DNA from: Candidatus Omnitrophota bacterium
GTDB taxonomy: Bacteria > Omnitrophota > Gorgyraeia > Gygaellales > Profunditerraquicolaceae
Assembly (NCBI GenBank): GCA_041651115.1
Contig: JBAZJY010000003.1
Coordinates: forward strand, 139,829-192,523
Length of the DNA: 52,695 bases
Reading direction: 5' to 3'
The notes under the pieces were generated by a model. That model did not search any database. It was not told where the DNA came from and was given only the letters and a program-made list of their open reading frames with translations. Below, piece by piece: positions 15,672 to 52,695 of the stretch. Every line of letters starts with the position of its first letter. Positions within the stretch are counted from its first letter, which is position 1. Position numbers and translations under genes: made by a program.

Positions 15672-16259
15672 TTATCTGCCGAGCCCTTCCATAACATTAC
15701 CCATGGACGGCATCTGATAAGAGAATTTTTCATATCCGGCAGGCACCTCAAACAATGAATCAGGCTGGCTGCCTGTATTTATGTTCTTATACTCTATGAC
15801 CCAGCTATTGTCAGCCGCAGCTATCTTAACCGGTATGGTTAACCCGCTGGCGATCCACTGATACATGGTTTCTCTATTTCCGTTCTGATTGTAAGTGATC
15901 TCATACTTTTCAGTCATCCTGCCGCCTATCGCCTCTTTCCCTACAAGCTTACGCTCAATCTCATTTTCTACTTTTTCCGTAGGGGCCATCGGCCTGCTGG
16001 TATCAATTTCCTGCTCCATATACATTTTATCTTTGGGCATAAGCATCCATACTACTTTTTTATCCATCCGGCTGATAGTAACGGCATCCGGAGCTTCCAT
16101 CCTTACTTTGTCTTTAGTAACGAATATCTTTCCTTGAAAAACCCCGTCTTTAGTCGTGCTGACCATTTCTGCGGAAAAATCTTCAGCCAAAGCCACGGCT
16201 GCCGAAAGAAGAACAACCGCGCTCATTACCGCAATCATCAATTTCATCCCGGTCTTCAT
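15672..16259 (-). CDS. Secreted LolA-like/DUF4412-like protein
   Basis: 195 aa. Signal peptide MKLMIAVMSAVVLLSAAVALA. Beta-rich mature part. The family call is tentative. Confidence 0.45.
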   Translation of the reverse strand: MKTGMKLMIAVMSAVVLLSAAVALAEDFSAEMVSTTKDGVFQGKIFVTKDKVRMEAPDAVTISRMDKKVVWMLMPKDKMYMEQEIDTSRPMAPTEKVENEIERKLVGKEAIGGRMTEKYEITYNQNGNRETMYQWIASGLTIPVKIAAADNSWVIEYKNINTGSQPDSLFEVPAGYEKFSYQMPSMGNVMEGLGR

Positions 16260-16982: not shown

Positions 16983-17336
16983 TTACCTGCTCCTTTTCCT
17001 TATCCTGTTTTTTGCTTTAGCCAGCGGGCATAATATCTTCGCAAAATAAGATAATTTCCCGTTTTCGTATGGAAATTCTTTGCAGTGGTGGGGCTTAAGC
17101 CCGTAATCAACCTTATGGATAGAACAGAGCCCTTTTTTCGTAAGGAAAGAGCACTTGTTATCCTCCCAGCTTGTACCGACCCGGTAACCTGAAGGGTATC
17201 CCTTATGCTTCTCAAGATGATAAAAATCCCCTTTTAAGCCGAGGGACAATATTTTTTTCGCTTCATCCAGATCTACCCATACCCCAAAATCACAACAGGT
17301 GCTTTGCTTCTTGCATTTCTTACAATCAATCTTCAT
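16983..17336 (-). CDS. YkgJ-family cysteine-cluster protein (UPF0153-like)
   Basis: 117 aa. N-terminal CKKCKKQSTCC cluster plus further conserved Cys residues. Confidence 0.5.
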   Translation of the reverse strand: MKIDCKKCKKQSTCCDFGVWVDLDEAKKILSLGLKGDFYHLEKHKGYPSGYRVGTSWEDNKCSFLTKKGLCSIHKVDYGLKPHHCKEFPYENGKLSYFAKILCPLAKAKNRIRKRSR

Positions 17337-17349
17337 CTTAGCTTTCTCC

Positions 17350-18354
17350 TTACCATCCCCAGCCAGCGCCCAGGAATACTGCTGATTCCTGCCGGGATTT
17401 GATCAATCGCAGGAATGCCTGGCCATTTCCCTTAAAAGCGGCGCGGGATAATTCAAGTTCCGCGCCGATACCCTTATCCAAACTATTCCTTAAATTAAAC
17501 AAGACCGTTGCTTTATCCGTCAGCTTTGCCTCCGCGCCAAAGGCAAATTCCTGGATCTTTTTACTGCCTTGCTCTACTGAAAATACCAACCCGGCGTTTT
17601 TATTGACCTGCCATTTACCGGAAAAAATTATCCTGCGCCTTACAGGCCTTACCCTTTGCGCCAGGCCGATGCCCAGCTCGTATTTTATATAATTATCCTT
17701 AAATATTCCAAGGCTGGTTTTAAAATCAAAGCTTGACCCGCTATTTTTATCCAGCACATATGATAACCGGGCTTTATCCCGGATATCCCAATGCCCCTGA
17801 AAAGCAATCGCCTGTATTCTTTTGCGTTTACGCAGCAAATCCTCTTTTTTATAACGGTAGATGAGCTTATAATTTTCATCTACCTGCCATGCTGCCTCAA
17901 AAGTCAAAAGATCATAGCTTGCGCGTTCTTTATTGGCCTTAAAAGTAAGCCGGTTGCGGATATCCGCCTGCCAGGAGCCGGAAAGCTCAAGGATATAAAC
18001 GGATTGCCTGCCGTCTTTTGCCCTGCTTGTAACCGCAAAAAGCAGGGAATTCTTCTGGCCGGCAATGATCTCCCCCTGAAGGGTAAGCTGATCCCCGAAT
18101 GTCTGTCTGCCCCATTTATCCAGGGTAAGGCGGAGCTGATGTTCTTCCGTCAAGGACCATGCGCCTTTTAATTTTACCTGGTGCGGCAGCTTTATGTCTG
18201 CAGGGATCGGGCTTTTTATGTGGTAGGTTAGAGTATTGCCTGCGGCAATGCTGAATCGCCCCTCTAAAACCCTTCTAAACTTCTCCAGGCCTGTCCTTGA
18301 AACTACCAGCCGGTTATGCGGATCTACTTCATACCTGAGTTTTCCTGTTGCCAT
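17350..18354 (-). CDS. Hypothetical beta-hairpin-repeat protein
   Basis: 334 aa with no signal peptide. About 8-9 copies of a roughly 40-aa unit h-x-G-x-W-x-h-x5-L-x-F/Y. Ends in GAGWGW. Confidence 0.6.
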   Translation of the reverse strand: MATGKLRYEVDPHNRLVVSRTGLEKFRRVLEGRFSIAAGNTLTYHIKSPIPADIKLPHQVKLKGAWSLTEEHQLRLTLDKWGRQTFGDQLTLQGEIIAGQKNSLLFAVTSRAKDGRQSVYILELSGSWQADIRNRLTFKANKERASYDLLTFEAAWQVDENYKLIYRYKKEDLLRKRKRIQAIAFQGHWDIRDKARLSYVLDKNSGSSFDFKTSLGIFKDNYIKYELGIGLAQRVRPVRRRIIFSGKWQVNKNAGLVFSVEQGSKKIQEFAFGAEAKLTDKATVLFNLRNSLDKGIGAELELSRAAFKGNGQAFLRLIKSRQESAVFLGAGWGW

Positions 18355-34207: not shown

Positions 34208-34840
34208 CTATTGGTTACGGCTTTCAGGTATCAGCGATAGGTCCTGGGCGATTTCAGCGCTTAATGAACCGACAGCCGCACTTAACGCGTCCGCTAAACC
34301 GGAATAATCCGGCGGATCAATCGGCTGGGCCAGGCTTGACCTTTTTGTAAAAAGCATCTTTCTGGTATTTGTATCGATGACCGACCATTGCGCTGTAAAC
34401 AAAAGGCCCTTCTTAAGATTGCCCGCTAATTGCATGATCTCTATTATTACTTGATAATTCACGGGGATAGCAAAATTACAGGGGAACATCTCAAATGTCC
34501 CGCCCGGCATCATCAGGTTAAGGTCTTCAATGATCAGCCGCGCTATTCCCGCGTCAAGAGGCTCGCCCCAACGGTCAAACTGCGCAATATGCATCATTAA
34601 TTTATCGTCCTCGGTAACCATCTGCGGGCGGTCCAGGTATTGAGGGATCTCTACGGGGCCGATCACGACAATCGTGCCGGAAGGAATGTTAAACTTCCGC
34701 GCAGCCTGATCTGCCTTCAGCTGTTTAAGTATGTAAAAACGCGATTTAGGGCTGCTGCCGGCTGAAACACATCCGCCTAAAACAAAAACGAGCAGTCCCC
34801 CGACAACTACGCTATGATAAAAAAAGCCGCATCTTCTCAT
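34208..34840 (-). CDS. PqiC/YmbA-like ABC-transport auxiliary lipoprotein (DUF330-like)
   Basis: 210 aa with lipobox [12 protein letters not shown]-type overlap with the upstream MlaD-like gene. Confidence 0.6.
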
Positions 34841-35544
34841 TTTCCTTCTCCTTCGGATATTGCTTTCCCTTTTAAGAATGCTTCCGGATGCTGCTCAAGG
34901 TATTCTACCAGCAGCCGTATTGAACGCGCGGCCCGGGATACCTCCTGCAGCGTCTTCGGCAGCTCGGAAAAACCCTCTGAATTTACCAGCCTGTTGATAG
35001 CGCTTACCGTTTCTCCCAGATCATCCGTGATTTCCTTGATCGGGATTTCGTCCATTATATCAAAAATGTCCTTTGAGATCGGCAGGGCAGGCAATTCAGG
35101 ATAAGTCTTGATGATGCCATATGTCTTGGCCGGCTTATCCGGATAAAAATCAAGCGCTAACATCAACTGACCGGTAATAAAATTCTGTATCTCAAGCTTT
35201 GCGCGCAATCCCTCTTCGATCAATTTTTTGTAGTCGGGATAACCGAACCTGTCAGGCATTCCTTTGACCCGTGATAATTCCACGTCAATGACTACGGGTA
35301 TCAATACGTTTTTTTCCTTTGCATTATACACGAGCCCGATGCTGTCAACGTTACCCACCTTCACTCCCCGGAAAATTACCGGCGCCCCTTCCGAAAACCC
35401 TTTTACCGAGCCGTCAAAGAATAAAACGTACTTATCCGATTGTTTAAAAAGCGACCCGGACCCAAAAATTATTACGGCGGCGATCAATAAGGCAACCGCT
35501 CCGACTACAAACGCACCGATAAGTGTCTTATTGGCTTTTCTCAT
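34837..35544 (-). CDS. MlaD/MCE-domain protein
   Basis: 235 aa. N-terminal TM helix, then the MCE core FFDGSVKGFSEGAPVIFRGVKVGNVDSI. Confidence 0.8.
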   Translation of the reverse strand: MRKANKTLIGAFVVGAVALLIAAVIIFGSGSLFKQSDKYVLFFDGSVKGFSEGAPVIFRGVKVGNVDSIGLVYNAKEKNVLIPVVIDVELSRVKGMPDRFGYPDYKKLIEEGLRAKLEIQNFITGQLMLALDFYPDKPAKTYGIIKTYPELPALPISKDIFDIMDEIPIKEITDDLGETVSAINRLVNSEGFSELPKTLQEVSRAARSIRLLVEYLEQHPEAFLKGKAISEGEGK

Positions 35545-36302
35545 TGTCCGGCTCCTTGTTTTTCTCCCCGCGTCAGGAATCTGATTACCCTTGGGTCTTT
35601 AGAATCGGCTAATAATTTTTTAGGCGGACCTTGCGCGATCACAGTCTTAGTATCGGCATCCAAAAGTATGGCATTATCCCCCACGGCAAAGATACTGGCA
35701 AGCTCATGCGTCACCACTACGATCGTCGCGCCTAAATTATCCCTTAGCTCAAGGATAAGGTCGTCCAGCATCTTAGCGCTTAAAGGGTCGAGCCCTGCCG
35801 AAGGTTCGTCAAAAAAGATAATATCCGGATCCAGGGCGATTGCCCGCGCCAGGCCTGCCCTTTTTCGCATGCCTCCGCTTAATTCCACAGGATAAAAATC
35901 GGCGTAACCGCCCAAACCTACCAACCCAAGCTTAAGTAAGGCCACGTCCTGGATCTGCGTGCCGGATAACCGCGAATATAACTGCAGCGGCAGCGCCACA
36001 TTTTCATTTAACGTCAGCGAACTCCAAAGCGCGCCGCCCTGATAAAGCACTCCGAAACGGCGCATGATATTTTGCCTGTCCTGCTCATCCGCGTCCCAAA
36101 AGCTGACCCCGTCGTAGAGGACTTTTCCTTTTTGCGGCGGGTTAAGCCCGATCATGGCCTTAAGCAGGGTGCTTTTACCGCATCCGCTGCCTCCCATAAC
36201 AATAAAAACCTCGCCTTTTTTCACGCTGAAATCGATCCCGCGCATTACCACAAGATCGCCATAAGCCAAATCAAGGTTTTTTACTTCAATAACGGATTCC
36301 AT
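35541..36302 (-). CDS. MlaF-like ABC transporter ATP-binding protein
   Basis: 253 aa. Walker A GGSGCGKST, signature LSGGMRKRAGLARA, Walker B IIFFDEPSAGLD. Confidence 0.9.
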   Translation of the reverse strand: MESVIEVKNLDLAYGDLVVMRGIDFSVKKGEVFIVMGGSGCGKSTLLKAMIGLNPPQKGKVLYDGVSFWDADEQDRQNIMRRFGVLYQGGALWSSLTLNENVALPLQLYSRLSGTQIQDVALLKLGLVGLGGYADFYPVELSGGMRKRAGLARAIALDPDIIFFDEPSAGLDPLSAKMLDDLILELRDNLGATIVVVTHELASIFAVGDNAILLDADTKTVIAQGPPKKLLADSKDPRVIRFLTRGEKQGAGQ

Positions 36303-36305
36303 ATA

Positions 36306-37436
36306 TCAGACTCCTATTACCTGACAAACAAAAGTGATCACCGCGGTAGCGATGACGATCGCGGTTATTGCCGTGACTACTGCCGAAGTTGTGGCCTCCC
36401 CTACTCCCGCGGAGCTTCTTTCGCAGCGCATGCCCCGGTAGCATCCGGCAATAGCAATGATGATGCCGAAGACAAAGCCGTGGATCAAACCGATCCAAAG
36501 ATTGCTCAACTTTACTGCTGACATGGTATGACTAAAATATTCAACCGGATTGATCCCCAGTATCCCGGTGCTGATAACAAAACCGCCGGCTATGCCCATC
36601 AGGTCAGCGTAAAGAGTTAAAAGCGGCAGCATGATCACCAGCGCCAATACGCGCGGCATAACCAAAAATTCAGTAGGAGAAACGCCCAGCGTTCTTAACG
36701 CGTCAATTTCTTCGTTGGCCTGCATGATTCCCAGCTCCGCGGCAAAACTGGCGCCGGTGCGGCCGGACATCAGGACTGCAGTCATCACCGCCCCCATTAC
36801 CCGCACCATGGCAATCCCTACGATATCGGCAATATAAATCTGCGCCCCGAACATCTTTAACTGGATTGCGCCGATAAAAGCCAGGATCACCCCCACCAAT
36901 ATGCTGATCAGCGAAACCAGACCCAGGGCATCCGCTCCGCATCTTTGCACGATAGCAAAAAAATCATCTTTGCGGAAAAAGGCCTTGCCGCGGATAAGGC
37001 GCGCCAAGGCAGATACGATATCGCCTAAAAAATCCAGCACGGAAAGCGCGGCATCTTTAGCCTGGATAACTTTGCTGCCTACGCTATCGAGAAATGGTTC
37101 TTCGCCTGCCTTGCGGGGCGTTATTTTTTCAGCCTGCGCAGAAGGATTAAATTTAAGCAGCTTTTCTATCTGCGGCGGAAAGGCCTGCATGGTAATCCGA
37201 ATATTCTTTTGTTTGGCAATACTGCTTAATTTAAGTAAAAAGGAAATAAACGCGCTGTCCCATTTAAAATCCCGGGACACGCTAAAGCTGATCTCCGTAA
37301 TATCCGGATGAGGATCGAGTTGGGCAAGGACTGTATCTACCGCAGGAAGGCCGACGGAAAGCTGCCAGTCTCCGCTTAGCTTAAGCTGCAGGACCCCCGG
37401 TTTTGAAAAATCAAAGGCAAGTTTTTCTAAAGACAT
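36306..37436 (-). CDS. MlaE-family permease with an N-terminal STAS-like domain
   Basis: 376 aa. The C-terminal ~260 aa form an MlaE-type permease. The N-terminal ~115 aa follow a STAS-like pattern (LKLSGDWQL .. KWDSAFISFLLKL .. IRITMQAFPPQIEKLLKF). Confidence 0.8.
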   Translation of the reverse strand: MSLEKLAFDFSKPGVLQLKLSGDWQLSVGLPAVDTVLAQLDPHPDITEISFSVSRDFKWDSAFISFLLKLSSIAKQKNIRITMQAFPPQIEKLLKFNPSAQAEKITPRKAGEEPFLDSVGSKVIQAKDAALSVLDFLGDIVSALARLIRGKAFFRKDDFFAIVQRCGADALGLVSLISILVGVILAFIGAIQLKMFGAQIYIADIVGIAMVRVMGAVMTAVLMSGRTGASFAAELGIMQANEEIDALRTLGVSPTEFLVMPRVLALVIMLPLLTLYADLMGIAGGFVISTGILGINPVEYFSHTMSAVKLSNLWIGLIHGFVFGIIIAIAGCYRGMRCERSSAGVGEATTSAVVTAITAIVIATAVITFVCQVIGV

Positions 37437-39808: not shown

Positions 39809-40519
39809 TTATAATTTAGCCCCGGAAAGGAGCTCTCTTGCCCCGTTCTTGTCCTGGATGTATACCTCAGGAATAAATTCCATTGAGTTAGGGATAAGAT
39901 CGGCCATGACTTTTGTAAGCCGCGCCTGTTGCGTTTCATTCTGCGGGTCAAATATAGGATTCTGGCTAAGATCATTCAACAAAAGGATCACCGGATCGCG
40001 CGGAAACATAAAATCCTTTAAAAGCCGCTTTATGAGAATGTCCAGGTAATCCGCTTTGTCCTTGAATACGTCCACGGCGGTTTTAAAAGTGATCTTCCCC
40101 CAGTCTTCGGCAACCGTCTTATGGATGAGCGCGTAAACAGAAAAATACTTGATCATCGTAATTTCCTCGGGGGTTAATTTAGCGGCGGTATTGATAATGA
40201 CGGTAGTAAGCTCCGCGTGCTTGAATGTTTTGATCTCTTTGTGTATGTCGATCGTCAAAAGATCAAAAATATACACGCCGTGCACGCCGGATACGGCGTT
40301 GATCGTGCTGCGCTTGACAAAATCCTCTACCGCATCCCAAAGGACCTTTTCGTCATTGCGGATAAAATTCAATGATAAAATAGTGCAGGCTTGGCCTTCG
40401 CGGACAGCCTTATACCGGCGGACTTTTTCCTCATTATGCCCGGCATAGGAAATTTCGTCAAAAAGCGGCATATGCCGGAAAAGGTTTGATTTTTGAAATC
40501 CGAAATCGACAAGATTCAT
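39809..40519 (-). CDS. Hypothetical protein, no recognisable domain
   Basis: 236-aa soluble ORF. ATGA overlap with the upstream response regulator and 0-nt spacing to the downstream Smr-like ORF. Confidence 0.6.
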   Translation of the reverse strand: MNLVDFGFQKSNLFRHMPLFDEISYAGHNEEKVRRYKAVREGQACTILSLNFIRNDEKVLWDAVEDFVKRSTINAVSGVHGVYIFDLLTIDIHKEIKTFKHAELTTVIINTAAKLTPEEITMIKYFSVYALIHKTVAEDWGKITFKTAVDVFKDKADYLDILIKRLLKDFMFPRDPVILLLNDLSQNPIFDPQNETQQARLTKVMADLIPNSMEFIPEVYIQDKNGARELLSGAKL

Positions 40520-43518: not shown

Positions 43519-44598
43519 CTAATATCCTCCTTTTTCATTGTCTATTTTGATTACCAGTTCAAGAGCCTTGGGATCGTTAGCATTATGCATCGCTTCTTCC
43601 GCGGAAATCACCCCTTCCTGAAGAAGGCTCTTTAAAGATTGCTCCATCTCCTGCATCCCCTCTTTACGCCCGGTCTGAATGGCGGAATATATCTGGTGTG
43701 TGTTCCCCTCTTTGATCAAATGCTTTATCGCAGAATTCACTACCATTATCTCAAAGGCAGCGACCCGGCCGGAGCCGTCCTTCTTGCGCAGCAATTTCTG
43801 GGCAATGACTGCCTTTAAGCTAGACGCTAATTGAGTGCGGATCTGGGGCTGTTGATGGGGCGGGAAAACATCGATCATCCTGTCCACTGTTTGCGCCGCA
43901 TCGTTTGTATGCAAAGTGGCAAATACCAAGTGCCCGGTTTCGGCGGCAGTAATGGCATTAGAAATGGTATCAAGGTCGCGTATCTCGCCGACCAGGATAA
44001 CGTCAGGGTCCTCTCTTAACGTATCCCTTAAGGCAGTAGCAAAGGAATCGGTATCTATACCTACCTCCCTTTGGTTGATTTCGCAGAGCTTGTTTTGGTG
44101 AATAAATTCCAAGGGGGCCTCGATAGTTATAATGTGGCCTTTGAGATTACTATTTATATACTCTATTATTGCCGCTAAGGTGGTTGACTTTCCGCTGCCG
44201 GTCGGGCCGGTAACTAAAATCAACCCGTTTGGTTTTATTGCCAACTCTTTAATGACCGGCGGCAAGGCCAGTTCTTCTATAGTGGGGATCTTAAAAGGAA
44301 TGCACCGCATCACCGCGCCTACGCACCCCCGCTGTTGATAGGCATTTACCCTGAAACGGGCTATCCCCGGTACGGAATAGGAAAAATCAAGACGGTGACA
44401 CCGGTTAAATTCTTCTTTCTGCTCCTTCGTCATAATAGAATCCATGTATTTTTCTATATCCTTAGAGGACAAAGGGCCAAGGTCGGAAAATGACAATTCG
44501 CCGTTGACGCGAAAAATAGGCGGGCTGCCGGCCTGAAAATGAAGGTCGGAAGATTTTTTGATTACCAGGGTGCGTAACAAAATATCGATATTCGTCAT
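43519..44598 (-). CDS. pilT: Type IV pilus retraction ATPase PilT
   Basis: 359 aa. SDLHF..GSPP, Walker A GPTGSGKST, GEIRD, and ATLHT His-box. Confidence 0.9.
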   Translation of the reverse strand: MTNIDILLRTLVIKKSSDLHFQAGSPPIFRVNGELSFSDLGPLSSKDIEKYMDSIMTKEQKEEFNRCHRLDFSYSVPGIARFRVNAYQQRGCVGAVMRCIPFKIPTIEELALPPVIKELAIKPNGLILVTGPTGSGKSTTLAAIIEYINSNLKGHIITIEAPLEFIHQNKLCEINQREVGIDTDSFATALRDTLREDPDVILVGEIRDLDTISNAITAAETGHLVFATLHTNDAAQTVDRMIDVFPPHQQPQIRTQLASSLKAVIAQKLLRKKDGSGRVAAFEIMVVNSAIKHLIKEGNTHQIYSAIQTGRKEGMQEMEQSLKSLLQEGVISAEEAMHNANDPKALELVIKIDNEKGGY

Positions 44599-44658
44599 AT
44601 TTTTTCTCCTTAGTAAAAAGTGCTTCCTGCGCCCCCCCTGCCCGTTATTAATAATTTT

Positions 44659-45387
44659 TCAGGTTCTAAGATACTTCCGCGAAAGAGCAACGATGAAGAT
44701 GGACATAAGAAACACGCCTAAGAAGGCCTCGGTTACCGCGAAAAATTGGTTTAAACCCACGGGGGTGATATCTCCGTAACCCACAGTAGTAAAAGTAACA
44801 AAACTAAAATAAAGCGATTGTAAAAAACCGGGCTTAAAAATAACGTCGCCCCGGGACAGCTCTCCCCGGCTATACAATAAAGCCGAAATAAAGATCAGCG
44901 AAAGCGCGGAAAGAAATCCGCGGCCCGGCCTTTCCCCATGCCCCCAGATCCACGAAGAAAACAACAGGAAAAGCCAAAGTAAAGGCCTCTTGCTTTTTTT
45001 AGGGTCGATAAAACTGCGGGCGAGTGATTTTCTCAGGCATTCCCTTGAGAGGAAAAAACATTCGGAAAAACCGGAGAATTCCAGGTCTCTTTCATAATTT
45101 ATCGCTGCCTGCCGGTACATCAAAGATGCGTATTCCCAATCGCCTGCCATTACCGCTTCCCTTGCCGCTTCCTCGTATGCCTTCGATGAATTATCAAAGG
45201 CCATTTCACCTGATTTTAAAGCCCAGCAGCTGGCAGCTGAAGCTAAACACAAAGCAGCCTGTTTATGGTCGCCTTTTTCTCTATAAAGGTCTCCCGCCTT
45301 CCTGAACAGAACATATGCCTCGCATATCTTGTCCTGCGCAAGAAGTGCGTGCGCCTCTTTTTCCAGTGATCCCGGTTGATTCCCCAT
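44659..45387 (-). CDS. Two-TM potassium-channel pore protein with an N-terminal TPR-like soluble domain
   Basis: 242 aa. Selectivity filter TTVGYGD between two hydrophobic helices. The N-terminal ~110 aa are helical-repeat-like. Confidence 0.75.
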   Translation of the reverse strand: MGNQPGSLEKEAHALLAQDKICEAYVLFRKAGDLYREKGDHKQAALCLASAASCWALKSGEMAFDNSSKAYEEAAREAVMAGDWEYASLMYRQAAINYERDLEFSGFSECFFLSRECLRKSLARSFIDPKKSKRPLLWLFLLFSSWIWGHGERPGRGFLSALSLIFISALLYSRGELSRGDVIFKPGFLQSLYFSFVTFTTVGYGDITPVGLNQFFAVTEAFLGVFLMSIFIVALSRKYLRT

Positions 45388-45406
45388 ATTTTGCCTATTT
45401 TTTAAA

Positions 45407-47260
45407 TTATCTTCCTAAAATTATCAGGGTAATATCATCGTGCTGCACGCAGCGGAGAGCAAATTCAGCAACATCATCCAATAAGGCTTTTGACAACTCG
45501 GCAGATTTCTTGCCGCGGTTTTCGGAAATTACCTTCTTTATCCTCTCAATGCCAAACTCCCGCTTATCCTTACTACGCGCCTCGGTCAAGCCGTCGGTAA
45601 AGATAATTATTTTATCACCTTTTTCTAAATTGAATAGAACATTATTGTATTCCGCGTCTTCCGTAACGCCAAGGGGTAAACCCGCATCCAGCTCTATTTC
45701 CTTTAGTTCATTCGCCTTTTCCTTAAAAACAAGCAGCGGCGCATGTCCTGCCGAAGAAACGCTCACCGTGTTATTGACGGTATCAATGATCAGGTACATA
45801 AAAGTAACAAACCTGGAAGACGTCCTGCCATAAAGTTCTTTATTAAGCAAGCTTAAGACTTTGGCGCAATCCCGGCATTGGCGGCTGAATATCCTGAAAA
45901 GTGAAATTGCCTGCGCCATGATCAAAGACGCGGGTACGCCCTTTCCTGAAACGTCCCCGATCAAAAGCCCCAGGGTTTTCTCATCAAGGGCAATAAGGTC
46001 ATACAAGTCTCCGGCAACAAATTTTGCCGGCTGTAAAGATGAGGAAATATCCAAACCGTTGAATTCTTTTAATTCCTGCGGCAGGAAACTCTGCTGGATA
46101 CTGCGGGCAATTTCCAGCTCTTTTTCCAGAAGCTCCCTCTTTTTTGTCTCTATAAAGATCCTATAAACGATTGCGACAACATAAACCGAAAAAATAATAA
46201 ATAAAGGCAGGAATAAGTCTATCCAAATGCCTAAGAATATGAATAACCCGGTAGAGATAAGAAAATAAGCCAAGCCAAGGATCAGGCTCCCCAAAAGCGC
46301 TTTTAATGGCTTAAACCGCAGGCACATTGTCAAACCGAGTGCAAACAGAAGCAGCGCTATAAGGAGGTTTATCAAAGTGCCGGCAGGCCTGATAAATTCA
46401 TTCTGTATCAGGCTGTTAAATACGCTTGCCTGCAGGCCGACTAAAGGGTAATTATTCCCTAATGGCACCGGTTGAAAATCCGATGTCCCCGTCGCGGTCA
46501 AGCCGATAAAACAAACTTTATCTTTTAATACCGATAAATCTATGTCCGGCTCTTTACCTTGTTTTAGCTGGCTAAAAGACTTTAGTATCTCAAAGTAAGA
46601 AAGGTGCTTAAAGGTTTTCTCCCACCTGCCCGGATAATTTACCAGCAAATAATTTCCGGCCATCACCGGCAGAGAAAGCCGTTTATCTAAGATGTTTAAA
46701 CCGAGCGTATCATAGGCAGCCTTGAATCCCAATTGCGGGATCAGTTCATTATTATATTTTATAAACAGGGGTATTTTCCTGATCTTTCCGTCCGGATCCA
46801 GGACTACATTAATATGGCCGATGCCTGCGGCGCTTTCAGAAAATCCCGGGGCAAGGCCTGCCAGGAGAGAAGGATATTTCCCCGGCAAAAATGCCAGCGG
46901 CAGGTAAACGTTACCGGCGGCTTTTATGGCGCGGGAAAACTCGGCATCATACGGGGTGGGCTCGGGGAAAAGAACATCAAAAATTATTTTTCTTACCCCG
47001 CACTCTTTCAGGACGTCCACCAAACTGGCATGAAAATCGCGCGGGATCGGCCAATTGGCCAGGTTCTTCAGGGAATCATCCGATATTTCAATAATAACGA
47101 TATTTTCGCTAACTTTTATGGCGGGGCGTAATTTAAACCTTAAGTCGTAGAAAAGAAGCTCGTGGCCATTGAAGACATTAAACGCGGAAAGGATAAAAAC
47201 CGCAAGGCAACCGGCGAGGATCACCCGCGATCTCAAGGAGATCTTTTTAAAGAATTTCAT
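45407..47260 (-). CDS. CHASE2 sensor fused to a SpoIIE/PP2C-type protein phosphatase
   Basis: 617 aa. Signal anchor, then CHASE2 (IVIIEISDDSLKNLANWPIPRDFHASLVDVL..IIFDVLF), then 3-4 TM helices. PP2C motifs follow: IARSIQQSFLP, GDLYD, GDVSGKGVPASL, FTDGLTEA, DDITLIIL. Confidence 0.85.
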   Translation of the reverse strand: MKFFKKISLRSRVILAGCLAVFILSAFNVFNGHELLFYDLRFKLRPAIKVSENIVIIEISDDSLKNLANWPIPRDFHASLVDVLKECGVRKIIFDVLFPEPTPYDAEFSRAIKAAGNVYLPLAFLPGKYPSLLAGLAPGFSESAAGIGHINVVLDPDGKIRKIPLFIKYNNELIPQLGFKAAYDTLGLNILDKRLSLPVMAGNYLLVNYPGRWEKTFKHLSYFEILKSFSQLKQGKEPDIDLSVLKDKVCFIGLTATGTSDFQPVPLGNNYPLVGLQASVFNSLIQNEFIRPAGTLINLLIALLLFALGLTMCLRFKPLKALLGSLILGLAYFLISTGLFIFLGIWIDLFLPLFIIFSVYVVAIVYRIFIETKKRELLEKELEIARSIQQSFLPQELKEFNGLDISSSLQPAKFVAGDLYDLIALDEKTLGLLIGDVSGKGVPASLIMAQAISLFRIFSRQCRDCAKVLSLLNKELYGRTSSRFVTFMYLIIDTVNNTVSVSSAGHAPLLVFKEKANELKEIELDAGLPLGVTEDAEYNNVLFNLEKGDKIIIFTDGLTEARSKDKREFGIERIKKVISENRGKKSAELSKALLDDVAEFALRCVQHDDITLIILGR

Positions 47261-47262
47261 GA

Positions 47263-48276
47263 TTAAAAATTATACTGCCACCCGCAGGTAAAGACGTTTT
47301 CGGTATATTTGTCAATGGAATCGTTCGCGTTGTCGCCGCGGTAGGTGTAAAGAAAAGAAAGGATATTATGCTTGTCCAATTTATACCGGAACAAGAGGTT
47401 TGTCGCGTAAATATTCTCCTTTTCCTTATAATTCTCATTAGTAACAAGGCGGCTCTTGTAATTTTTTCTTAGATAAATGAAATTGGAACTTAAATCAAAT
47501 TTACGGGTAAATTTATAAGTTATAGATGGGGATATCTCATAGGATTTATAATCGTAGAAATCAAGATACCTGTCGTTAGAGTTATTGACCGAGAACCTGC
47601 CCATGATCTTTGCGTAAAACTTCCGGGTAATATCAGAGCTGATGTTGTATTCAACGCTCTGCCTGTTTTCCCTGCGTTCTTTTTCCTGGGTTGAGCCATA
47701 GTCATCGCCCATGGCCTTTCTATCGGTATAATATTTTTCGCCGTATGAAAAAAGCAGTTGGTGATAGGTTTTACGCGCCAGTTTGCTCTTTAGATAAAAG
47801 AGATACTTATTAAAAAGGAATGTGCCGTCGTCATTATTGGTATAGGCATAGATAGCCAGGTCATCCCCGATACCGACATTTAGCCAGTCAAATAATTTTT
47901 TATCCACCACAAAACGGCCGTGGTTTAAGATATTAGAGATATCAGTTGCCTCATTATAATTTAAAACGTCCAGGTCATAGTTAAAGACGAACTTGGTGCG
48001 GGCAATCCACGGTTTTATCACCGAAGACGACCAGAGGAATTCCTCGTAATGATCACCCTTGCTTTCCGCGCTCAAACGGGCATTAGTATCAAATCCGTAA
48101 AATAAGCCCGCCACAGAAGAAAGCTTAAAGGTAGGCTTCTTTTTTTCTAACTTGCTTATTTCCAGGGTCTTTTCTTCTCTTTCTTCGCGCACATCATCGC
48201 AAAGACCTCGGTCAACTGCAGAAAAAAGGAAAATGCCAGTAATTACCAAGACCATGAAAGAAAATTTTCTATACAT
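47263..48276 (-). CDS. Putative outer-membrane beta-barrel protein
   Basis: 337 aa. Signal peptide, alternating hydrophobic beta-strand pattern rich in Y/N/D, and a C-terminal beta-signal GWQYNF. Confidence 0.6.
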   Translation of the reverse strand: MYRKFSFMVLVITGIFLFSAVDRGLCDDVREEREEKTLEISKLEKKKPTFKLSSVAGLFYGFDTNARLSAESKGDHYEEFLWSSSVIKPWIARTKFVFNYDLDVLNYNEATDISNILNHGRFVVDKKLFDWLNVGIGDDLAIYAYTNNDDGTFLFNKYLFYLKSKLARKTYHQLLFSYGEKYYTDRKAMGDDYGSTQEKERRENRQSVEYNISSDITRKFYAKIMGRFSVNNSNDRYLDFYDYKSYEISPSITYKFTRKFDLSSNFIYLRKNYKSRLVTNENYKEKENIYATNLLFRYKLDKHNILSFLYTYRGDNANDSIDKYTENVFTCGWQYNF

Positions 48277-48321
48277 AGCTTCTCCTCTTTTATTGAACCA
48301 AACGCCTGTTGCTAATTACCA

Positions 48322-49113
48322 CTAACGTTTAATATCTTCAGTCGGCGGATTATCTGACGGCGGCTCTGGTATTTCTATATCCCTTCTATTCTCTTCCCTT
48401 AAATCCCGATAATCCTGGCGCTGCTCATCGTGCAGCCCGAATTCTTCTATACCAAGGCCCTCATCATCATTTTCTTCGCCGCCTTTTTCTATAACAAAAT
48501 CAACCGTATCGGTAAAATTGTCCCAAGTATCAAAATCCCTTCCCCCTAATTGGCGCGGCTGTCCAAAATCGCCCCCGGGTCCGACATCAATGCCAAACCC
48601 GTTGCCAATGTTTTGTTCGCCGGTAGGATTGCCATTTTCATCCAACCCTTGCACAAAAATAGTATTCTCAAAACATTCTGCGTTAGTATTGCCGTTATTA
48701 AATCCGGTTACCCATCCTGTGCCGCGCGCTCCGGCAATGGCAGTAGGAGTCCTGACCTGGAATTTTTCCTCTTTGGCTAAATTCTCAACCAAAGCAAATA
48801 CCCTGCCCTGCGGCAGGAAAATATTCCCCGGCTTAACACTCTCTATTTTTATCTTTGTATTCTCCTTAACAGAAACAATATTTGTCGGCTCCTCATCAAA
48901 CGCCAGGATACATTCAGACCGCGCTTTTGTTTCTACTTCAGCGCCGTCATTTAACACCATATTAAGCTTTACCTTTTCCCACTCAAGGCCTGCTTCTTTT
49001 TTGACCATTACCTGGCCTCGCCTGTCAATGACCTTGGCTGTTTGCGCGAATAAGGCCATAGGCAAGACTAACAGAAACGAAACCGCTATTATGAATACGA
49101 ATATCCTTTTCAT
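48322..49113 (-). CDS. Secreted FecR-domain protein with an acidic tail
   Basis: 263 aa. Signal peptide ..LPMALFAQTA. FecR-like GQVMVKKEAGLEWEKVKLNMVLNDGAEVETKARSECILAF. Acidic C-terminal 60 aa. Confidence 0.65.
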   Translation of the reverse strand: MKRIFVFIIAVSFLLVLPMALFAQTAKVIDRRGQVMVKKEAGLEWEKVKLNMVLNDGAEVETKARSECILAFDEEPTNIVSVKENTKIKIESVKPGNIFLPQGRVFALVENLAKEEKFQVRTPTAIAGARGTGWVTGFNNGNTNAECFENTIFVQGLDENGNPTGEQNIGNGFGIDVGPGGDFGQPRQLGGRDFDTWDNFTDTVDFVIEKGGEENDDEGLGIEEFGLHDEQRQDYRDLREENRRDIEIPEPPSDNPPTEDIKR

Positions 49114-49124
49114 TTCTCTCTCCT

Positions 49125-49694
49125 CTATTTGCCGCTCGGCTTTGGCTTGGTTTCTTTGCCTTTGAATAAAAGTTTCCAGGGATGGCGCTTGATATCGTCG
49201 CTAAATTCCTCAAAATTCTTGGCGATATTAGTTATTCTCTCTTTGTTCTCGCCTACAATTGAATTTACATCAGACAAAAGCGAGTCTATGTCTACGTAAG
49301 GCTTACCATAAATAGTGATACCCGGTTCTAAGAAACTATTGTTTTGCGCGGAAGATATCTGGATGAATTTTTCACCCATCAGGCCAAGGGTCTTGATGGA
49401 AATTTCCGAGTTTTCCCTGATCCTTGTGTCCTTGTCCAGCCATAGCTTAAGGATAACTAAGGTCTTGTCGGCATCATAAGAGATCTTCATATCGTCTACT
49501 TTGCCGACTTCAAAGCCATTCATCATTACCGGCGCTTTCTTATCCAGGCCGGCGATTTCCTCAAAGATCACATAAATATTATAGCCCTCTTTCTTAAAAG
49601 AGATCTTCCCGGTTGACAGCGTAAGATAAGCTAACCCGGCTAAACACAAAATAATGAATAAGCCCACCTTGAACTCTTGCGTATATTTTTTCAT
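49125..49694 (-). CDS. MlaD/MCE-domain protein
   Basis: 189 aa. N-terminal TM helix and MCE core IFEEIAGLDKKAPVMMNGFEVGKVDDM. Confidence 0.8.
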   Translation of the reverse strand: MKKYTQEFKVGLFIILCLAGLAYLTLSTGKISFKKEGYNIYVIFEEIAGLDKKAPVMMNGFEVGKVDDMKISYDADKTLVILKLWLDKDTRIRENSEISIKTLGLMGEKFIQISSAQNNSFLEPGITIYGKPYVDIDSLLSDVNSIVGENKERITNIAKNFEEFSDDIKRHPWKLLFKGKETKPKPSGK

Positions 49695-49708
49695 ATTATT
49701 TCTCCCTG

Positions 49709-50518
49709 CTATAAGCCAAAATCTCCGATTACGCCGATATCTTCTTTAAAAAAATCTATCGGGCCTTCCGGCCTGCCGTTGATAAACTGCTGGATAAAAG
49801 GATTTTTAGAATTACGGATCTGATCGGGCGTGCCGATCTCAATGATCTGGCCCTTATGCACCATAGCGATCCTGTCGGCAATCGCGAATACGCTTTGCAT
49901 ATCATGGGTTACCACTACCGAAGTAATAAGCAATTTTGAGCTTAAGTCTTTGATCAGTTTATCGATCACTCCACCCACTACCGGGTCAAGCCCGGATGTC
50001 GGCTCATCATAAAAAACAATGTCCGGGTCAAGGGCGATTGCCCTGGCCAGGCCTACGCGTTTACGCATGCCTCCGGAGATCTGCGAAGGGTAATACTTCT
50101 CATAACCCCGCAAGCCAACCAGAGAAAGCTTCATTTTAATGATAATATTGACGATCTCTTCGGCTAACTTGGCGTGTTCCTGCAAGGGAAGGGCAATATT
50201 TTCTTCAACCGTCAATGAATCCAGGAGCGCGGAATACTGAAAGAGCATGCCGAAACGTTTCTTGATCTCATTCAATTCTTCTTCGGAAATATTGTAGATA
50301 TCCTTATTTTTTATCAACACCTTACCTTCATCCGGCTCGATCGTGCCGTTCATCAACCTTAAAGTAGTGCTCTTGCCTGAACCGGAACAGCCCATAATGA
50401 TAAAAGTTTCACCGGGAAAGATATCCAGGCTAAGATTATCGATTACTTTCTTGCCCTGGAATGTTTTTGAGACATTCCTTAGAGAAATTATCGGCTCTTT
50501 TGCTTGCGGCTGGCTCAT
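49709..50518 (-). CDS. MlaF-like ABC transporter ATP-binding protein
   Basis: 269 aa. Walker A GCSGSGKST, signature ISGGMRKRVGLARA, Walker B IVFYDEPTSGLD. Confidence 0.9.
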   Translation of the reverse strand: MSQPQAKEPIISLRNVSKTFQGKKVIDNLSLDIFPGETFIIMGCSGSGKSTTLRLMNGTIEPDEGKVLIKNKDIYNISEEELNEIKKRFGMLFQYSALLDSLTVEENIALPLQEHAKLAEEIVNIIIKMKLSLVGLRGYEKYYPSQISGGMRKRVGLARAIALDPDIVFYDEPTSGLDPVVGGVIDKLIKDLSSKLLITSVVVTHDMQSVFAIADRIAMVHKGQIIEIGTPDQIRNSKNPFIQQFINGRPEGPIDFFKEDIGVIGDFGL

Positions 50519-51303
50519 GTTTTAGAAAAATAGAAAATGGCGGTGATAATACAATCGGCCAGAATGATCGAAATAAAACTTGCCACAACGCTGCGCGTGG
50601 TGGCCCGGCCCACTCCTTCTGCCCCGCCTTTAGTATTTAACCCTTCATAACAGGAGATCAGCGCGATAATCACCCCGAAGACCCCTGCCTTGAGTAAACC
50701 GATATAAATATCCTTGAGCGCCAGGTGTTTAAAAGTAGTCTGCATATATAGATCGGGATTGATATTAAGGCTGCCTGTGCCGACAAGGAACCCGCCGAAT
50801 ATGCCGGAAATGTTGCCCAGGATCACAAGGCAGGGCATCATCACTAATAAAGCTAAAAAACGCGAAACGCAAAGATAGCGGGTAGGAGAAATAGACATCG
50901 TATCCAGCGCCTCTACCTGCTCGGTTACCTTCATTGAACCGAGCTCTGCGGCAATCGCCGAGCCGGCGCGGCCGGCAACTACCAAGCCGGTCAGGACCGG
51001 GCTTAATTCGCGGCAGAGGGATATCGCGACCAGCGAAGCAACATAAATCACCGCGCCCATCTTTTCCAGCTGATAGGCGGTCTGCATGGCTAAAACAATA
51101 CCGGTAAAAAAATCCACGAAAAATACGAGCACCACCGAGCGCAGGCCGACAAAGACCATTTGCTGGAATATGCCTTTGCGCTGCGCTGCCTTTCCCTTAA
51201 ATGAGCCAAAGAACAACCAGTAAAGCACGTTAAGAAAAAGAGAAAGAACGCCCCTAAGCCATCCCAGGTACTCAATAACTACTTTTCCGATATGAGAAAC
51301 CAT
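50515..51303 (-). CDS. MlaE-family ABC transporter permease (no STAS domain)
   Basis: 262 aa, MlaE-type 5-6 TM permease. Its ATG at 51301-51303 directly abuts the stop of the STAS gene. Confidence 0.85.
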   Translation of the reverse strand: MVSHIGKVVIEYLGWLRGVLSLFLNVLYWLFFGSFKGKAAQRKGIFQQMVFVGLRSVVLVFFVDFFTGIVLAMQTAYQLEKMGAVIYVASLVAISLCRELSPVLTGLVVAGRAGSAIAAELGSMKVTEQVEALDTMSISPTRYLCVSRFLALLVMMPCLVILGNISGIFGGFLVGTGSLNINPDLYMQTTFKHLALKDIYIGLLKAGVFGVIIALISCYEGLNTKGGAEGVGRATTRSVVASFISIILADCIITAIFYFSKT

Positions 51304-51636
51304 TTAGAAATCCTTTAGCCCTGATGCCTTATCTTCAAAGATCTCAAAAAGCTTATGCAGCTTAGTAACCTCAAAAACATTTTTTATTTTCTGGTTCATC
51401 CCGCTAAAACGTATGCGGCCGCCGATCTTCTTCAGGCGCTGGGACATCTCGATCAGAGTAGCGAGCCCTGAGCTGTCAATATAAGCGACATTAAGGAACT
51501 CTACGAGGATCTTCTTTTCATTTCTTTTAATGAATTCATCAAAGGCCTTGCGCAGTTGCGGAGAAGTCGTAATATCAATCTCCCCTTCTATGGCGCATAC
51601 CAGTATATCGCCGCTTTTTTCCTCGTTTATCTTCAC
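51304..51636 (-). CDS. Single-domain STAS protein (anti-sigma-factor-antagonist / MlaB-like)
   Basis: 110 aa with a GTG start in a GTGA overlap with the kinase gene. Canonical phospho-acceptor motif YIDSSGLATL. Confidence 0.85.
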   Translation of the reverse strand: MKINEEKSGDILVCAIEGEIDITTSPQLRKAFDEFIKRNEKKILVEFLNVAYIDSSGLATLIEMSQRLKKIGGRIRFSGMNQKIKNVFEVTKLHKLFEIFEDKASGLKDF

Positions 51637-52046
51637 TTGCCTTCTCCTTTTTTAAATAATTTCACCATTTTTATTTTACGGCCGCGCTCAAGAAAAGTTA
51701 CTTTATCCATGTGCTTACGGATCAAAAATATCCCCCTGCCGGAAAGTTTATGGAGTTTATCCGGCTTGGTGGGGTCAGGGGCATTCCGGAAATTAAAACC
51801 CTTGCCCTGATCAGCTACCCAGATAGTTAAAGAGCGGCTGCCGGCTTCCACTTTTACCCTTACGGCCAGATCCGGATTAAGCTTGTTCCCGTGCCTTATG
51901 GCATTGGACAAGGCTTCCCCTAAGGATAATTTTACGCCATGGATCTGCGCTTCATCCAGGGGTAATTGCTTAATTTTATCTATTATGGTATGGCTTAATT
52001 TCGGTATGAACTTGAGCTCGGAGGGTGTTTCTTCACAGAAATGCAT
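51633..52046 (-). CDS. RsbW/SpoIIAB-like GHKL serine protein kinase (anti-sigma-type)
   Basis: 137 aa. N-box EALSNAIRHG, G1 DQGKGF, G2 GRGIFL. No SD before the ATG. Confidence 0.8.
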   Translation of the reverse strand: MHFCEETPSELKFIPKLSHTIIDKIKQLPLDEAQIHGVKLSLGEALSNAIRHGNKLNPDLAVRVKVEAGSRSLTIWVADQGKGFNFRNAPDPTKPDKLHKLSGRGIFLIRKHMDKVTFLERGRKIKMVKLFKKGEGK

Positions 52047-52053
52047 AGGTTTA

Positions 52054-52082
52054 ATTATAGGCGCAATACTTCAATATTTCAA
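52054..52082 (-). promoter_or_regulatory. Near-consensus sigma70-type promoter of the kinase-STAS-Mla unit, predicting a leaderless first gene
   Basis: Minus strand: TTGAAA (52077-52082, overlapping the GIY-YIG stop), a 17-nt spacer, then TATAAT (52054-52059). Only 7 nt separate the -10 from the ATG at 52046. Confidence 0.55.
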
Positions 52083-52351
52083 GGAGATTTTGCCATTACT
52101 TTGTTACTAACGAAGCGGGCCAGAGCTAATTTCTTTTTCCGCGGTAATTTTTTTATCTGCGCTTCGCGCTTTAGGGCCTTGGACCTGGTTGCGGCCTCTT
52201 CGTTATAGACCAGCTTAACCGGGCAGCGGTATTTAGTGAACTTACAGCCATTACCGGAATTATGCGCGCGGACGCGGCGCTCTAAATTGTTGGTTATACC
52301 TGTATAGAGAATACCGTCTTTACATTTAATGATGTAGACGCGCCAAGGCAT
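52079..52351 (-). CDS. GIY-YIG nuclease-family small protein (UPF0213-like)
   Basis: 90 aa. Contains VYIIKCKDGILYTGITNNLERRVRAHN. Confidence 0.8.
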   Translation of the reverse strand: MPWRVYIIKCKDGILYTGITNNLERRVRAHNSGNGCKFTKYRCPVKLVYNEEAATRSKALKREAQIKKLPRKKKLALARFVSNKVMAKSP

Positions 52352-52438
52352 ATGCGAAAGAAAAGTTGAGGAATGGGGCCCTTCGCGTATGAACGAAGGT
52401 ACCGCTTGACTGCAGAAATGCTTCCCGGTCAGTAAAGT

Positions 52439-52695
52439 TTATTTATAATAATTGATGCCTCTTAAAATAAACTGTTCTTCCAGGCGTTTTGGCGAAAAGA
52501 ATTTACAGACAAATGATTTGGCTAAATTGGTATCGAACTCTTTGCAGCAATATATGTCGATTGAGATATAATTTTTTACGCTTAACGTATGAATAACAAT
52601 TGAACTCTCTACTAATGGCGCCCAGCCTGAAAGGCCCGCTTTATCGGGAAAACGCTTGGCATCCGTAAAAAATATGCTGGGCGGCGACTGCTTCT
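52439..52695 (-). CDS. S-adenosylmethionine decarboxylase-like (pyruvoyl-type) protein, 5' end outside the window
   Basis: Open minus-strand frame to the window edge, with TAA at 52439-52441. Translation: ..RFPDKAGLSGWAPLVESSIVIHTLSVKNYISIDIYCCKEF..ILRG. This matches the SpeH-type pattern GVSG..ISES.L.IHT....ID.FTC. It has no start in the window, so it is absent from the ORF track. Confidence 0.55.
   Translation of the reverse strand, partial: KQSPPSIFFTDAKRFPDKAGLSGWAPLVESSIVIHTLSVKNYISIDIYCCKEFDTNLAKSFVCKFFSPKRLEEQFILRGINYYK

Follow-up and report, generated by a model that had tools for sequence, protein, structure and literature searches.

An Omnitrophota operon that joins kinase, STAS and PP2C phosphatase genes to mlaEFD suggests a partner-switching-like module with an Mla transporter as its output

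We analysed a stretch of 52,695 nucleotides (nt) from a Candidatus Omnitrophota bacterium (contig JBAZJY010000003.1 of assembly GCA_041651115.1, positions 139,829-192,523). This whole stretch is henceforth referred to as the window, and coordinates are positions within it unless a related locus is named. Our subject is an operon on the minus strand, with genes at 45407-52046, in which eight co-directional and closely packed genes encode a kinase, a STAS protein, MlaE, MlaF, MlaD, a FecR-domain protein, an outer-membrane protein (OMP) and a CHASE2-PP2C phosphatase. From the promoter to a possible ninth gene, the features are as follows.

52054-52082, minus strand: sigma-70-like promoter TTGAAA-N17-TATAAT, read from the sequence; the only 11/12 match in 44400-52695
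51633-52046, minus strand: RsbW/SpoIIAB-like GHKL serine kinase, 137 amino acids (aa); Pfam HATPase_c_2, 1.8e-22
51304-51636, minus strand: single-domain STAS protein, 110 aa, with acceptor Ser55 in YIDSSGLAT; Pfam STAS, 1.4e-19
50515-51303, minus strand: MlaE-family permease; Pfam MlaE (PF02405), 7.7e-79; TIGR00056, 245 bits (cutoff 212)
49709-50518, minus strand: MlaF-type ATP-binding cassette (ABC) ATPase, 269 aa; Pfam ABC_tran, 3.4e-31, and matches to MlaF in the Protein Data Bank (PDB)
49125-49694, minus strand: short MlaD/MCE subunit, 189 aa; Pfam MlaD (PF02470), 1.8e-18
48322-49113, minus strand: secreted protein with DUF7354 (MtxA_N) and FecR domains; Pfam, with a signal-peptide-like N-terminus
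47263-48276, minus strand: 14-strand outer-membrane beta-barrel, 337 aa, with C-terminus GWQYNF; AlphaFold2 (AF2) model and Foldseek
45407-47260, minus strand: CHASE2-SpoIIE/PP2C membrane sensor phosphatase, 617 aa; Pfam CHASE2, 2.5e-50, and SpoIIE, 2.4e-46
44659-45387, minus strand: TPR-like domain fused to a K+ channel pore with two transmembrane (TM) segments, 242 aa; Pfam Ion_trans_2, 9.4e-15; possible ninth gene

The kinase and STAS genes share a 4-nt GTGA overlap; the STAS gene starts with GTG and is preceded by AAGGAG 8-9 nt upstream of that codon. The ATG of MlaE stands right behind the TAA of STAS (0 nt), and MlaE and MlaF are joined by an ATGA overlap. The remaining gaps are 14 nt (MlaF-MlaD), 11 nt (MlaD-FecR), 45 nt (FecR-OMP) and 2 nt (OMP-PP2C). 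This gene order, with its strands, open reading frames (ORFs) and spacings, is as described in an earlier sequence-only reading of the DNA, and Pfam supports all domain calls of that reading except the OMP.

We scanned one genome per GTDB species and obtained 369 stretches that encode a relative of the STAS protein. The best 80 of the 369, with STAS identities of 44-73%, were retrieved with 10-kb flanks and form our set of related loci (cited as L and a number where one has to be named). All 80 loci are from metagenome-assembled or single-cell genomes of Omnitrophota, some of them in records mislabelled ‘uncultured Planctomycetia’, and the STAS homologues with a source name always come from Candidatus Omnitrophica/Omnitrophota. 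The synteny counts have denominators of 76, 73 and 57, which are the numbers of loci with enough DNA on the relevant side.

MlaE is encoded directly 3' of STAS in 76/76 loci with room, and the kinase directly 5' of STAS in 73/73. Between the STAS stop and the MlaE start the median distance is 3 nt, and in 33 of 73 loci it is -1 or 0 nt. The flanking genes are not conserved across loci, and the core is intact down to 44% STAS identity. The complete 1.82-Mb genome CP070807.1, for example, has the same eight genes among wholly different neighbours. Because the core recurs in every adequate locus of the 80 while the flanks differ, the arrangement is far beyond chance. In four species the kinase and STAS are fused into a single ORF of 246-258 aa that still directly precedes and abuts mlaE (L019:4907-5656, L042:607-1347, L069:9557-10333 and L072:9593-10333). 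Kinase-STAS-mlaEFD is a well-supported conserved genetic unit. One contig of the set, JBHPFV010000032.1, is a 21-kb single-cell-genome contig on which two inverted STAS-mlaEFD-PP2C copies (L052 and L053) face each other, which has the look of a palindromic amplification chimera and not of a true duplication.

By their profile and structure-database matches, the MlaE permease, the MlaF-like ATPase and the MCE subunit are the core of an Mla/MCE ABC transporter. In the PDB, the ATPase best matches MlaF from A. baumannii, P. aeruginosa and E. coli (1e-70 to 3e-60). Its best ATPase model is PRK11831, at 235.9 bits with an equivalog cutoff of 441, and it carries the ISGGM signature that is typical of Mla ATPases. 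It is as long as E. coli MlaF (269 aa), and the alignment reaches into the C-terminal extension with its ...QFI.G..EGPI.F motif (QFINGRPEGPIDFF vs QFLDGIADGPVPF). This extension is kept in 67/67 orthologous MlaFs. The more divergent half of these orthologues end in ...GDDYLxxL, resembling E. coli GDY261HADL265L266. In E. coli, the extension ends in a short helix, and Tyr261, Leu265 and Leu266 lie in the groove between MlaF and MlaB (PMC7367683). MlaD matches TIGR04430 under the cutoff, and its orthologues have about 183-250 aa. Such short MlaD proteins are almost restricted to Proteobacteria, where MlaC and MlaA are needed (PMC10665443). No MlaC or MlaA domain (PF05494, PF04333) was matched in the window ORFs scanned with Pfam, namely all 49 on the minus strand that reach 100 aa. 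In a mirror-tree comparison of 64 taxa, the distance matrices of MlaE, MlaF and MlaD correlate with one another at r 0.83-0.85.

The signalling proteins retain the residues expected of a phosphorylation cycle. The kinase has the motifs EALSNAIRHG, DQGKGF and GRGIF. Its best NCBIfam models are RsbW and SpoIIAB, both under the equivalog cutoffs, and its PDB sequence matches are SenB, RsbW and SpoIIAB. E44 and N48 of the N box, G81 and G83 of the G1 box and G103-R104-G105 of the G2 box are invariant in 70/70 orthologues, and D79 of the G1 box is kept in 66 of the 70. With 33-53% identity to its orthologues, the kinase is the fastest-evolving core protein, compared with 57-85% for MlaF. Kinases of the RsbW/SpoIIAB type phosphorylate the DSSG serine of their STAS partner, and PP2C enzymes of the RsbU/SpoIIE type dephosphorylate it. 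In the STAS protein, D54-S55 is invariant in 73/73, and the metal-binding aspartates of the PP2C domain (D418, D436, D556, D608 and D609) are invariant in 43/43. Judged by these residues, the kinase/STAS/PP2C set is intact, and we predict a live phospho-cycle on the STAS serine.

The STAS protein scores 74.7 bits against TIGR00377 (anti-sigma-factor antagonist; cutoff 53.45), and in the PDB its sequence is closest to TM1442, SpoIIAA and RsbV (4e-11 to 4e-8). Similarity to MlaB is weak (E 2e-3 for PDB MlaB chains and 2.5e-6 for the MlaB model). In the AF2 model, which has a mean predicted local distance difference test (pLDDT) score of 89.9, Ser55 is the first residue of helix 2. Foldseek gave TM-scores of 0.85 to SpoIIAA-type proteins, with TM1442, SpoIIAA and RsbV at the top. 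From its alignment with Ser58 of SpoIIAA and Ser56 of RsbV, we take Ser55 to be the phospho-acceptor. The corresponding motif of MlaB is VDT52GG, where the Omnitrophota STAS has IDS55SG. Extra STAS paralogues of 110-133 aa, mostly with DS[SA]G, occur near the operon in several loci, placed upstream of the kinase in divergent orientation or else downstream of the PP2C (L026:4039-4371, L030:9110-9442, L049:9572-9937, L065:10048-10413, L074:18261-18626, L076:8071-8472, L006:9179-9562 and L024:16276-16665). They hint at a multi-STAS, wider Rsb-like network.

A second MCE system, overlooked by the sequence-only reading, lies 14 kb away at 34208-37436 on the minus strand.

36306-37436, minus strand: MlaE with an N-terminal STAS_2 domain, 376 aa; Pfam
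35541-36302, minus strand: ABC ATPase, 253 aa, without the MlaF C-terminal extension
34837-35544, minus strand: MlaD of the second MCE system
34208-34840, minus strand: ABC_trans_aux lipoprotein

Neither a kinase nor a phosphatase stands beside it. The fused STAS-MlaE has the same STAS-then-MlaE order as the kinase-STAS-mlaEFD operon. BLASTP of the free STAS protein against the STAS region of the fusion gave no alignment, so the two are not recent duplicates.

The genes behind mlaD complete the operon. In the phosphatase, a TM segment at the N-terminus is followed by a CHASE2 domain in the periplasm, then by a TM bundle and, in the cytoplasm, by SpoIIE/PP2C. Pfam gave no match for the OMP itself, and its homologues carry PF10082/PF13505. 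Its AF2 model, built with 27 homologues, is a 14-strand beta-barrel behind a signal peptide (pLDDT 86.3), and its best Foldseek matches are the 14-strand barrels CymA and OmpG (TM-score ~0.6). PP2C is encoded downstream of MlaD in 51 of the 57 informative loci, and the tails divide into four types.

FecR + OMP + PP2C: 36/57 loci
FecR + PP2C: 2/57 loci
PP2C immediately after MlaD, no FecR: 13/57 loci (an OMP-like fragment in one)
No PP2C within at least 4 kb: 6/57 loci

FecR and OMP were never seen without PP2C in loci with enough downstream DNA, and in L057 and L064 they are situated beyond the PP2C gene. The sensor part of the phosphatase is exchanged in loci such as the following three, none of which has a FecR or OMP gene.

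L019:7921-9045: PP2C with a cyclic-nucleotide (cNMP)-binding sensor
L069:12567-13835: GAF-PP2C
L039:4105-4941: PP2C with TM segments only

PP2C keeps its place behind mlaD despite these swaps, and therefore the operon link is to the catalytic domain. A secreted FecR-domain protein beside a CHASE2 sensor kinase has been described in Burkholderia and Pseudomonas (PMC5192318). Because FecR and OMP track CHASE2 and the pairing of FecR with CHASE2 is known, we assign both proteins to the input side of the CHASE2 phosphatase, as the sequence-only reading had proposed. The FecR-domain protein is probably the periplasmic partner of the CHASE2 sensor. Its gene occurs in tandem copies between mlaD and OMP in three loci (three copies in L022:5427-7987, four in L023:13202-16441 and two in L028:12583-14463).

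The Mla system of E. coli offers a precedent for a STAS protein acting on this kind of transporter. MlaB is a STAS subunit that binds MlaF at its helical subdomain, and the interface is centred on Thr52; a T52E substitution weakens MlaF binding, and without MlaB, MlaF does not stay on MlaED (PMC7367683). The same MlaFB structure paper posed phosphoregulation of MlaB as an open question, without experimental evidence (PMC7367683).

The conserved synteny suggests, but does not prove, a partner-switching-like phospho-module with an Mla output. This is the likeliest of the readings that we considered, and we see the arguments as evenly balanced on whether the module regulates the Mla transporter of its own operon through the STAS protein, with an output that is not a sigma factor. 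In the mechanism that we propose, the kinase would phosphorylate Ser55 of STAS and so hold phospho-STAS off the transporter. An envelope signal, perceived by CHASE2 with the aid of the FecR protein and the outer-membrane barrel, would activate the PP2C, and this membrane phosphatase would strip the phosphate from Ser55. Dephospho-STAS would then use its helical face to dock on MlaF at the helical subdomain, like E. coli MlaB, and docking would stabilise the MlaF dimer on MlaE and turn lipid transport on. Phospho-STAS would be unable to dock, leaving the transporter idle. The full picture, a dedicated partner switch that gates the Mla transporter, in which OMP, FecR and CHASE2 report the envelope state and the phospho-state of an MlaB-like STAS decides MlaF-MlaE engagement, is tentative, and we place it somewhat short of an even call. 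Its least certain step is the polarity, with dephospho-STAS as the ON state, which we regard as rather doubtful.

Several observations weigh against this reading. The STAS protein scores only 27.8 bits against the MlaB model NF033618 (cutoff 90). Its model has a fifth strand (residues 98-100) and a C-terminal helix (103-107) that are absent from MlaB, and its Foldseek TM-scores to MlaB are 0.56-0.58, at ranks 38-45. In the mirror-tree comparison, STAS distances correlate weakly with everything (r 0.2-0.29) and with MlaF at a partial r of 0.09, so that the comparison shows no STAS-MlaF signal and is of little informative value; 1-2 paralogue mis-picks are possible in it. No PP2C gene lies near the operon in six of the 57 informative loci. 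Finally, E. coli MlaB T52A is non-functional yet still binds MlaF (PMC7367683), and by this analogy simple phospho-gating may be too simple.

We rejected the STAS protein as an MlaB orthologue: it is below the NF033618 cutoff and is of the SpoIIAA/RsbV type by sequence and fold. The interpretation in the sequence-only reading stands in part. The linkage of the kinase/STAS pair to mla was borne out, the input role of FecR and OMP is supported, and the docking of STAS on MlaF to gate transport is a tentative proposal. Known MlaBs share <20% identity with one another, and MlaB itself has a fold of 4 strands and 3 helices, without the fifth strand and last helix (PMC7367683). Because known MlaBs are so dissimilar, failing the MlaB model does not settle the function of the STAS protein. 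Gene position, the STAS-MlaE fusion in the window and MlaF's C-terminal extension favour an MlaB-like role.

An alternative that we consider unlikely is a classical partner switch, in which the kinase would be the anti-sigma factor for a sigma factor encoded elsewhere, possibly the primary one, and the mla genes would be co-transcribed or belong to its regulon. The kinase and STAS proteins are nearest to RsbW/SpoIIAB and RsbV/SpoIIAA by sequence and fold, and the additional STAS paralogues around several loci point to a broader Rsb-like network. Omnitrophota is a phylum within the Planctomycetes-Verrucomicrobia-Chlamydiae (PVC) group, to which Chlamydiae also belong, and the RsbW of Chlamydia reportedly binds sigma-66. 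Three loci count both for this alternative and against a transporter output. A full-length rpoD gene (regions 1.1-4) lies on the same strand directly upstream of the kinase in L061 (3512-5071) and L063 (7863-9443), and L014 has a gene for an extracytoplasmic function (ECF) sigma factor 1.5 kb upstream of the kinase. In L061 and L063, however, a separate TTGAAA-17-TATAAT promoter lies 7-8 nt ahead of the kinase ATG. Because this strong promoter adjoins its ATG, the kinase gene there is not simply part of the rpoD unit.

The window itself contains no detected sigma factor gene. Neither Sigma70 nor Sigma54 was matched when the 49 minus-strand ORFs with 100 aa or more were scanned with Pfam, and a jackhmmer search seeded with SigB, SigF, RpoE and RpoD found no sigma gene among the window ORFs of at least 60 aa. 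The seed sequences were approximate; the same search nonetheless recovered real sigma genes in other loci. These results agree with the statement of the sequence-only reading that no sigma factor gene occurs in the 52.7 kb. That reading had also set its proposal against the case in which kinase/STAS pairs elsewhere stand next to a sigma factor gene and not next to mla. Among the relatives the pairs stand next to mla, and no sigma gene lies within 10 kb in 77/80 loci, an outcome in favour of the proposal. Two further features argue against a sigma output. The order kinase-STAS-transporter is the reverse of rsbV-rsbW-sigB, such that the STAS gene abuts the putative output, and a sigma target would leave unexplained both the near-zero STAS-mlaE junction and the position of PP2C behind mlaD.

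The kinase might instead act on the transporter directly. It would itself bind and inhibit MlaF or MlaE as an ‘anti-transporter factor’, and dephospho-STAS would lift the block by sequestering the kinase. In canonical systems it is indeed the kinase that binds the effector, and STAS is only the antagonist. The synteny evidence applies to this version just as well, and kinase and STAS hold the same position in the four loci where they are fused. We find it improbable, as a GHKL anti-sigma kinase binding an ABC ATPase is without known precedent. The precedents favour STAS, namely the structure of a STAS protein on MlaF (PMC7367683) and the STAS-MlaE fusion in the window. The fast evolution of the kinase relative to MlaF ill suits a second conserved interface, and a permanent kinase-STAS fusion is hard to square with sequestration and release.

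A further alternative concerns the tail of the operon. The FecR protein and the OMP could be legs of the lipid route, standing in for MlaC and MlaA, rather than accessories of the sensor. MlaD is of the short type (189 aa) that needs MlaC and MlaA in Proteobacteria (PMC10665443), no domain of either was found in the window ORFs scanned, and the FecR and OMP genes come directly behind mlaD. The distribution of tails points the other way. Where the downstream DNA suffices, FecR and OMP never occur without PP2C: all three are present in 36 loci, and the 6 PP2C-less loci lack both. Thirteen loci retain MlaEFD and PP2C without FecR, FecR and OMP are missing wherever the PP2C sensor is a cytoplasmic cNMP or GAF domain, and in L057 and L064 the two genes lie beyond PP2C. 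A secreted FecR protein with CHASE2 is, moreover, a known pairing in Burkholderia and Pseudomonas (PMC5192318). We judge this alternative quite improbable and rejected it as the main reading, since the two genes co-vary with CHASE2 and not with MlaD.

That the signalling and transporter genes are functionally unrelated neighbours, co-inherited within one phylum, is very improbable: all loci do come from one phylum and the evidence is from sequence, but the flanks turn over while the core stays whole at STAS identities as low as 44%, genes overlap or nearly touch at the junctions, and PP2C stays put while its sensor domain is exchanged.

We compared the Omnitrophota operon with known systems. 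It shares with the MlaFEDB systems of E. coli and A. baumannii (PMC7367683, PMC5016091) the MlaE permease, an MlaF with SGGM and a C-terminal extension of ~25 aa, a short MlaD, and, in the same operon, a STAS protein that is small, has one domain and carries a Ser/Thr at the start of helix 2 (T52 in MlaB, S55 in Omnitrophota). It differs in that its STAS protein is SpoIIAA-type, with 110 aa, a fifth strand and last helix, a DSSG motif and a score below the MlaB cutoff, and in that the STAS gene is upstream of mlaE, whereas the MlaB gene is at the operon end. The operon also has a dedicated kinase and phosphatase, which are in no described Mla system, and no MlaC or MlaA was found in the window. 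With the RsbU/V/W-SigB and SpoIIE/AA/AB-SigF switches of B. subtilis it has three protein families in common, namely GHKL serine kinases, STAS proteins with DS[ST]G, and PPM/PP2C phosphatases whose N-terminal region is a sensor, and the nearest sequence and fold matches of its kinase and STAS proteins come from these switches. Unlike in B. subtilis, the kinase gene precedes the STAS gene, there is no sigma gene in the operon or window, lipid transporter genes come next, and the phosphatase is membrane-bound, with CHASE2 as its periplasmic sensor.

Partner-switching modules with outputs other than sigma factors include HsbR/HsbA and SiaABCD of P. aeruginosa and BtrU/V/W of Bordetella. The Omnitrophota operon resembles two such partner-switching-like modules in particular, HenR/All4160 of Anabaena (PMC13555669) and SypE/SypA of V. 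fischeri (PMC10120452, PMC4517449). In these modules an RsbW-like kinase and a PP2C determine the phospho-state of the STAS domain, through which a non-transcriptional effector is directly controlled; in Anabaena this effector is an envelope-biogenesis enzyme (PMC13555669). In Omnitrophota the presumed effector is an ABC transporter complex, a type of effector not previously described. Its STAS protein is free and encoded right before the permease, and the whole module is inside the operon of the effector.

The sensor side resembles the ‘BiofilmReg’ operon of Burkholderia, which encodes FecR and a CHASE2 kinase, and the PA4035/PA4036-like genes (PMC5192318), where a secreted FecR protein likewise stands beside a CHASE2 sensor and a further envelope protein. 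The output in Omnitrophota is a PP2C instead of a histidine kinase, the FecR protein carries DUF7354/MtxA_N instead of LysM, and the third component is a 14-strand outer-membrane barrel instead of a DUF4136 protein. The Rsb system of Chlamydia comprises RsbU with a periplasmic sensor, RsbW and RsbV1/V2, and its proposed target is the primary sigma factor. Chlamydia Rsb (listed in PMC5177608) is similar in belonging to a PVC bacterium and in having a membrane PP2C with a periplasmic sensor, an RsbW/RsbV pair and no adjacent alternative sigma factor. It differs in that its genes are scattered and not in an mla operon, and in its proposed target. Partner switching with non-sigma outputs and the STAS subunit of Mla are already known; what appears to be new is the kinase/phosphatase set attached to mlaEFD. 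Our full-text literature searches retrieved no description of a kinase/phosphatase pair tied to an Mla transporter, of an MlaB under kinase control, of partner switching that acts on an ABC transporter or of Mla in Omnitrophota, a result that does not prove absence.

We also assessed the promoter and the ends of the operon. We scanned 8.3 kb (44400-52695) for promoter-like sequences and scored matches out of 12 hexamer positions. The TTGAAA-N17-TATAAT reported by the sequence-only reading proved to be the best promoter of the region, and all other matches are at 9/12. Such matches are not enriched in the region (18 observed vs 15.0 +/- 4.9 expected). As that reading had also stated, 7 nt separate the end of the -10 box from the kinase ATG, and from this spacing a leaderless or nearly leaderless first gene is plausible. 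A promoter at the leaderless position reaches at least 10/12 in 3/68 loci, against a background of 0.2%, and at least 9/12 in 4/68. Strong promoters 7-8 nt before the kinase start are also present in L014, L024, L061 and L063. In many other loci, TATAAT-like boxes lie 20-30 nt upstream of the kinase, and the kinase gene commonly heads its unit among the related loci. We rejected the leaderless promoter as a family trait, given its recurrence in only 3-4 of 68 relatives. Directly upstream of the operon is a 90-aa GIY-YIG gene (52079-52351, minus strand) whose TGA stop codon overlaps the kinase promoter at its -35 hexamer; a GIY-YIG gene is kept upstream of the kinase in 1/80 related loci.

At the other end, the next gene (44659-45387) begins 19 nt past PP2C, and we found no convincing terminator downstream of the PP2C gene. 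The 3' end of the unit is undefined for these two reasons. The description of one co-directional unit in the sequence-only reading holds with this qualification. A homologue of the K+-channel gene stands right behind PP2C in about 10 closer relatives (L004, L006, L008, L009, L011, L012, L014, L016, L019 and L041) and is not found there in more distant ones. This gene may be a lineage-specific ninth gene of the unit.

Every window ORF with a Pfam match (195 to 52351) is on the minus strand, and the window is rich in envelope, lipid and signalling genes. It encodes a MacB-type ABC protein with HlyD and OEP, an MprF-C-terminal-like protein (10404-11288), a PlsC-like acyltransferase (16256-16978) and a PilT-like ATPase. 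The signalling genes encode two CHASE4 histidine kinases, a third HisKA kinase without a sensor-domain match and three stand-alone receiver proteins. Three minus-strand ORFs had no Pfam match (E <= 1e-3 to 1e-4): 39809-40519 (236 aa), 17350-18354 (334 aa) and 16983-17336 (117 aa).

The operon bears on how bacteria quickly adjust the flow of lipids between their two membranes and on the phosphoregulation of MlaB. It is found across the phylum and provides a natural and tractable test system for phosphoregulation of a STAS protein, with small parts that can be reconstituted in E. coli or in vitro. Annotating these Omnitrophota genes as ‘anti-sigma factor’ and ‘anti-sigma factor antagonist’ probably misleads. 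If the proposed mechanism is true, an ABC transporter would join the short list of non-sigma outputs of partner switching, and the orphan CHASE2/FecR sensor pair would gain a defined downstream substrate. The operon would then be the first natural case of the MlaB phosphoregulation hypothesised by Kolich et al. (2020), and Omnitrophota would possess a trans-envelope feedback loop on membrane-lipid trafficking.

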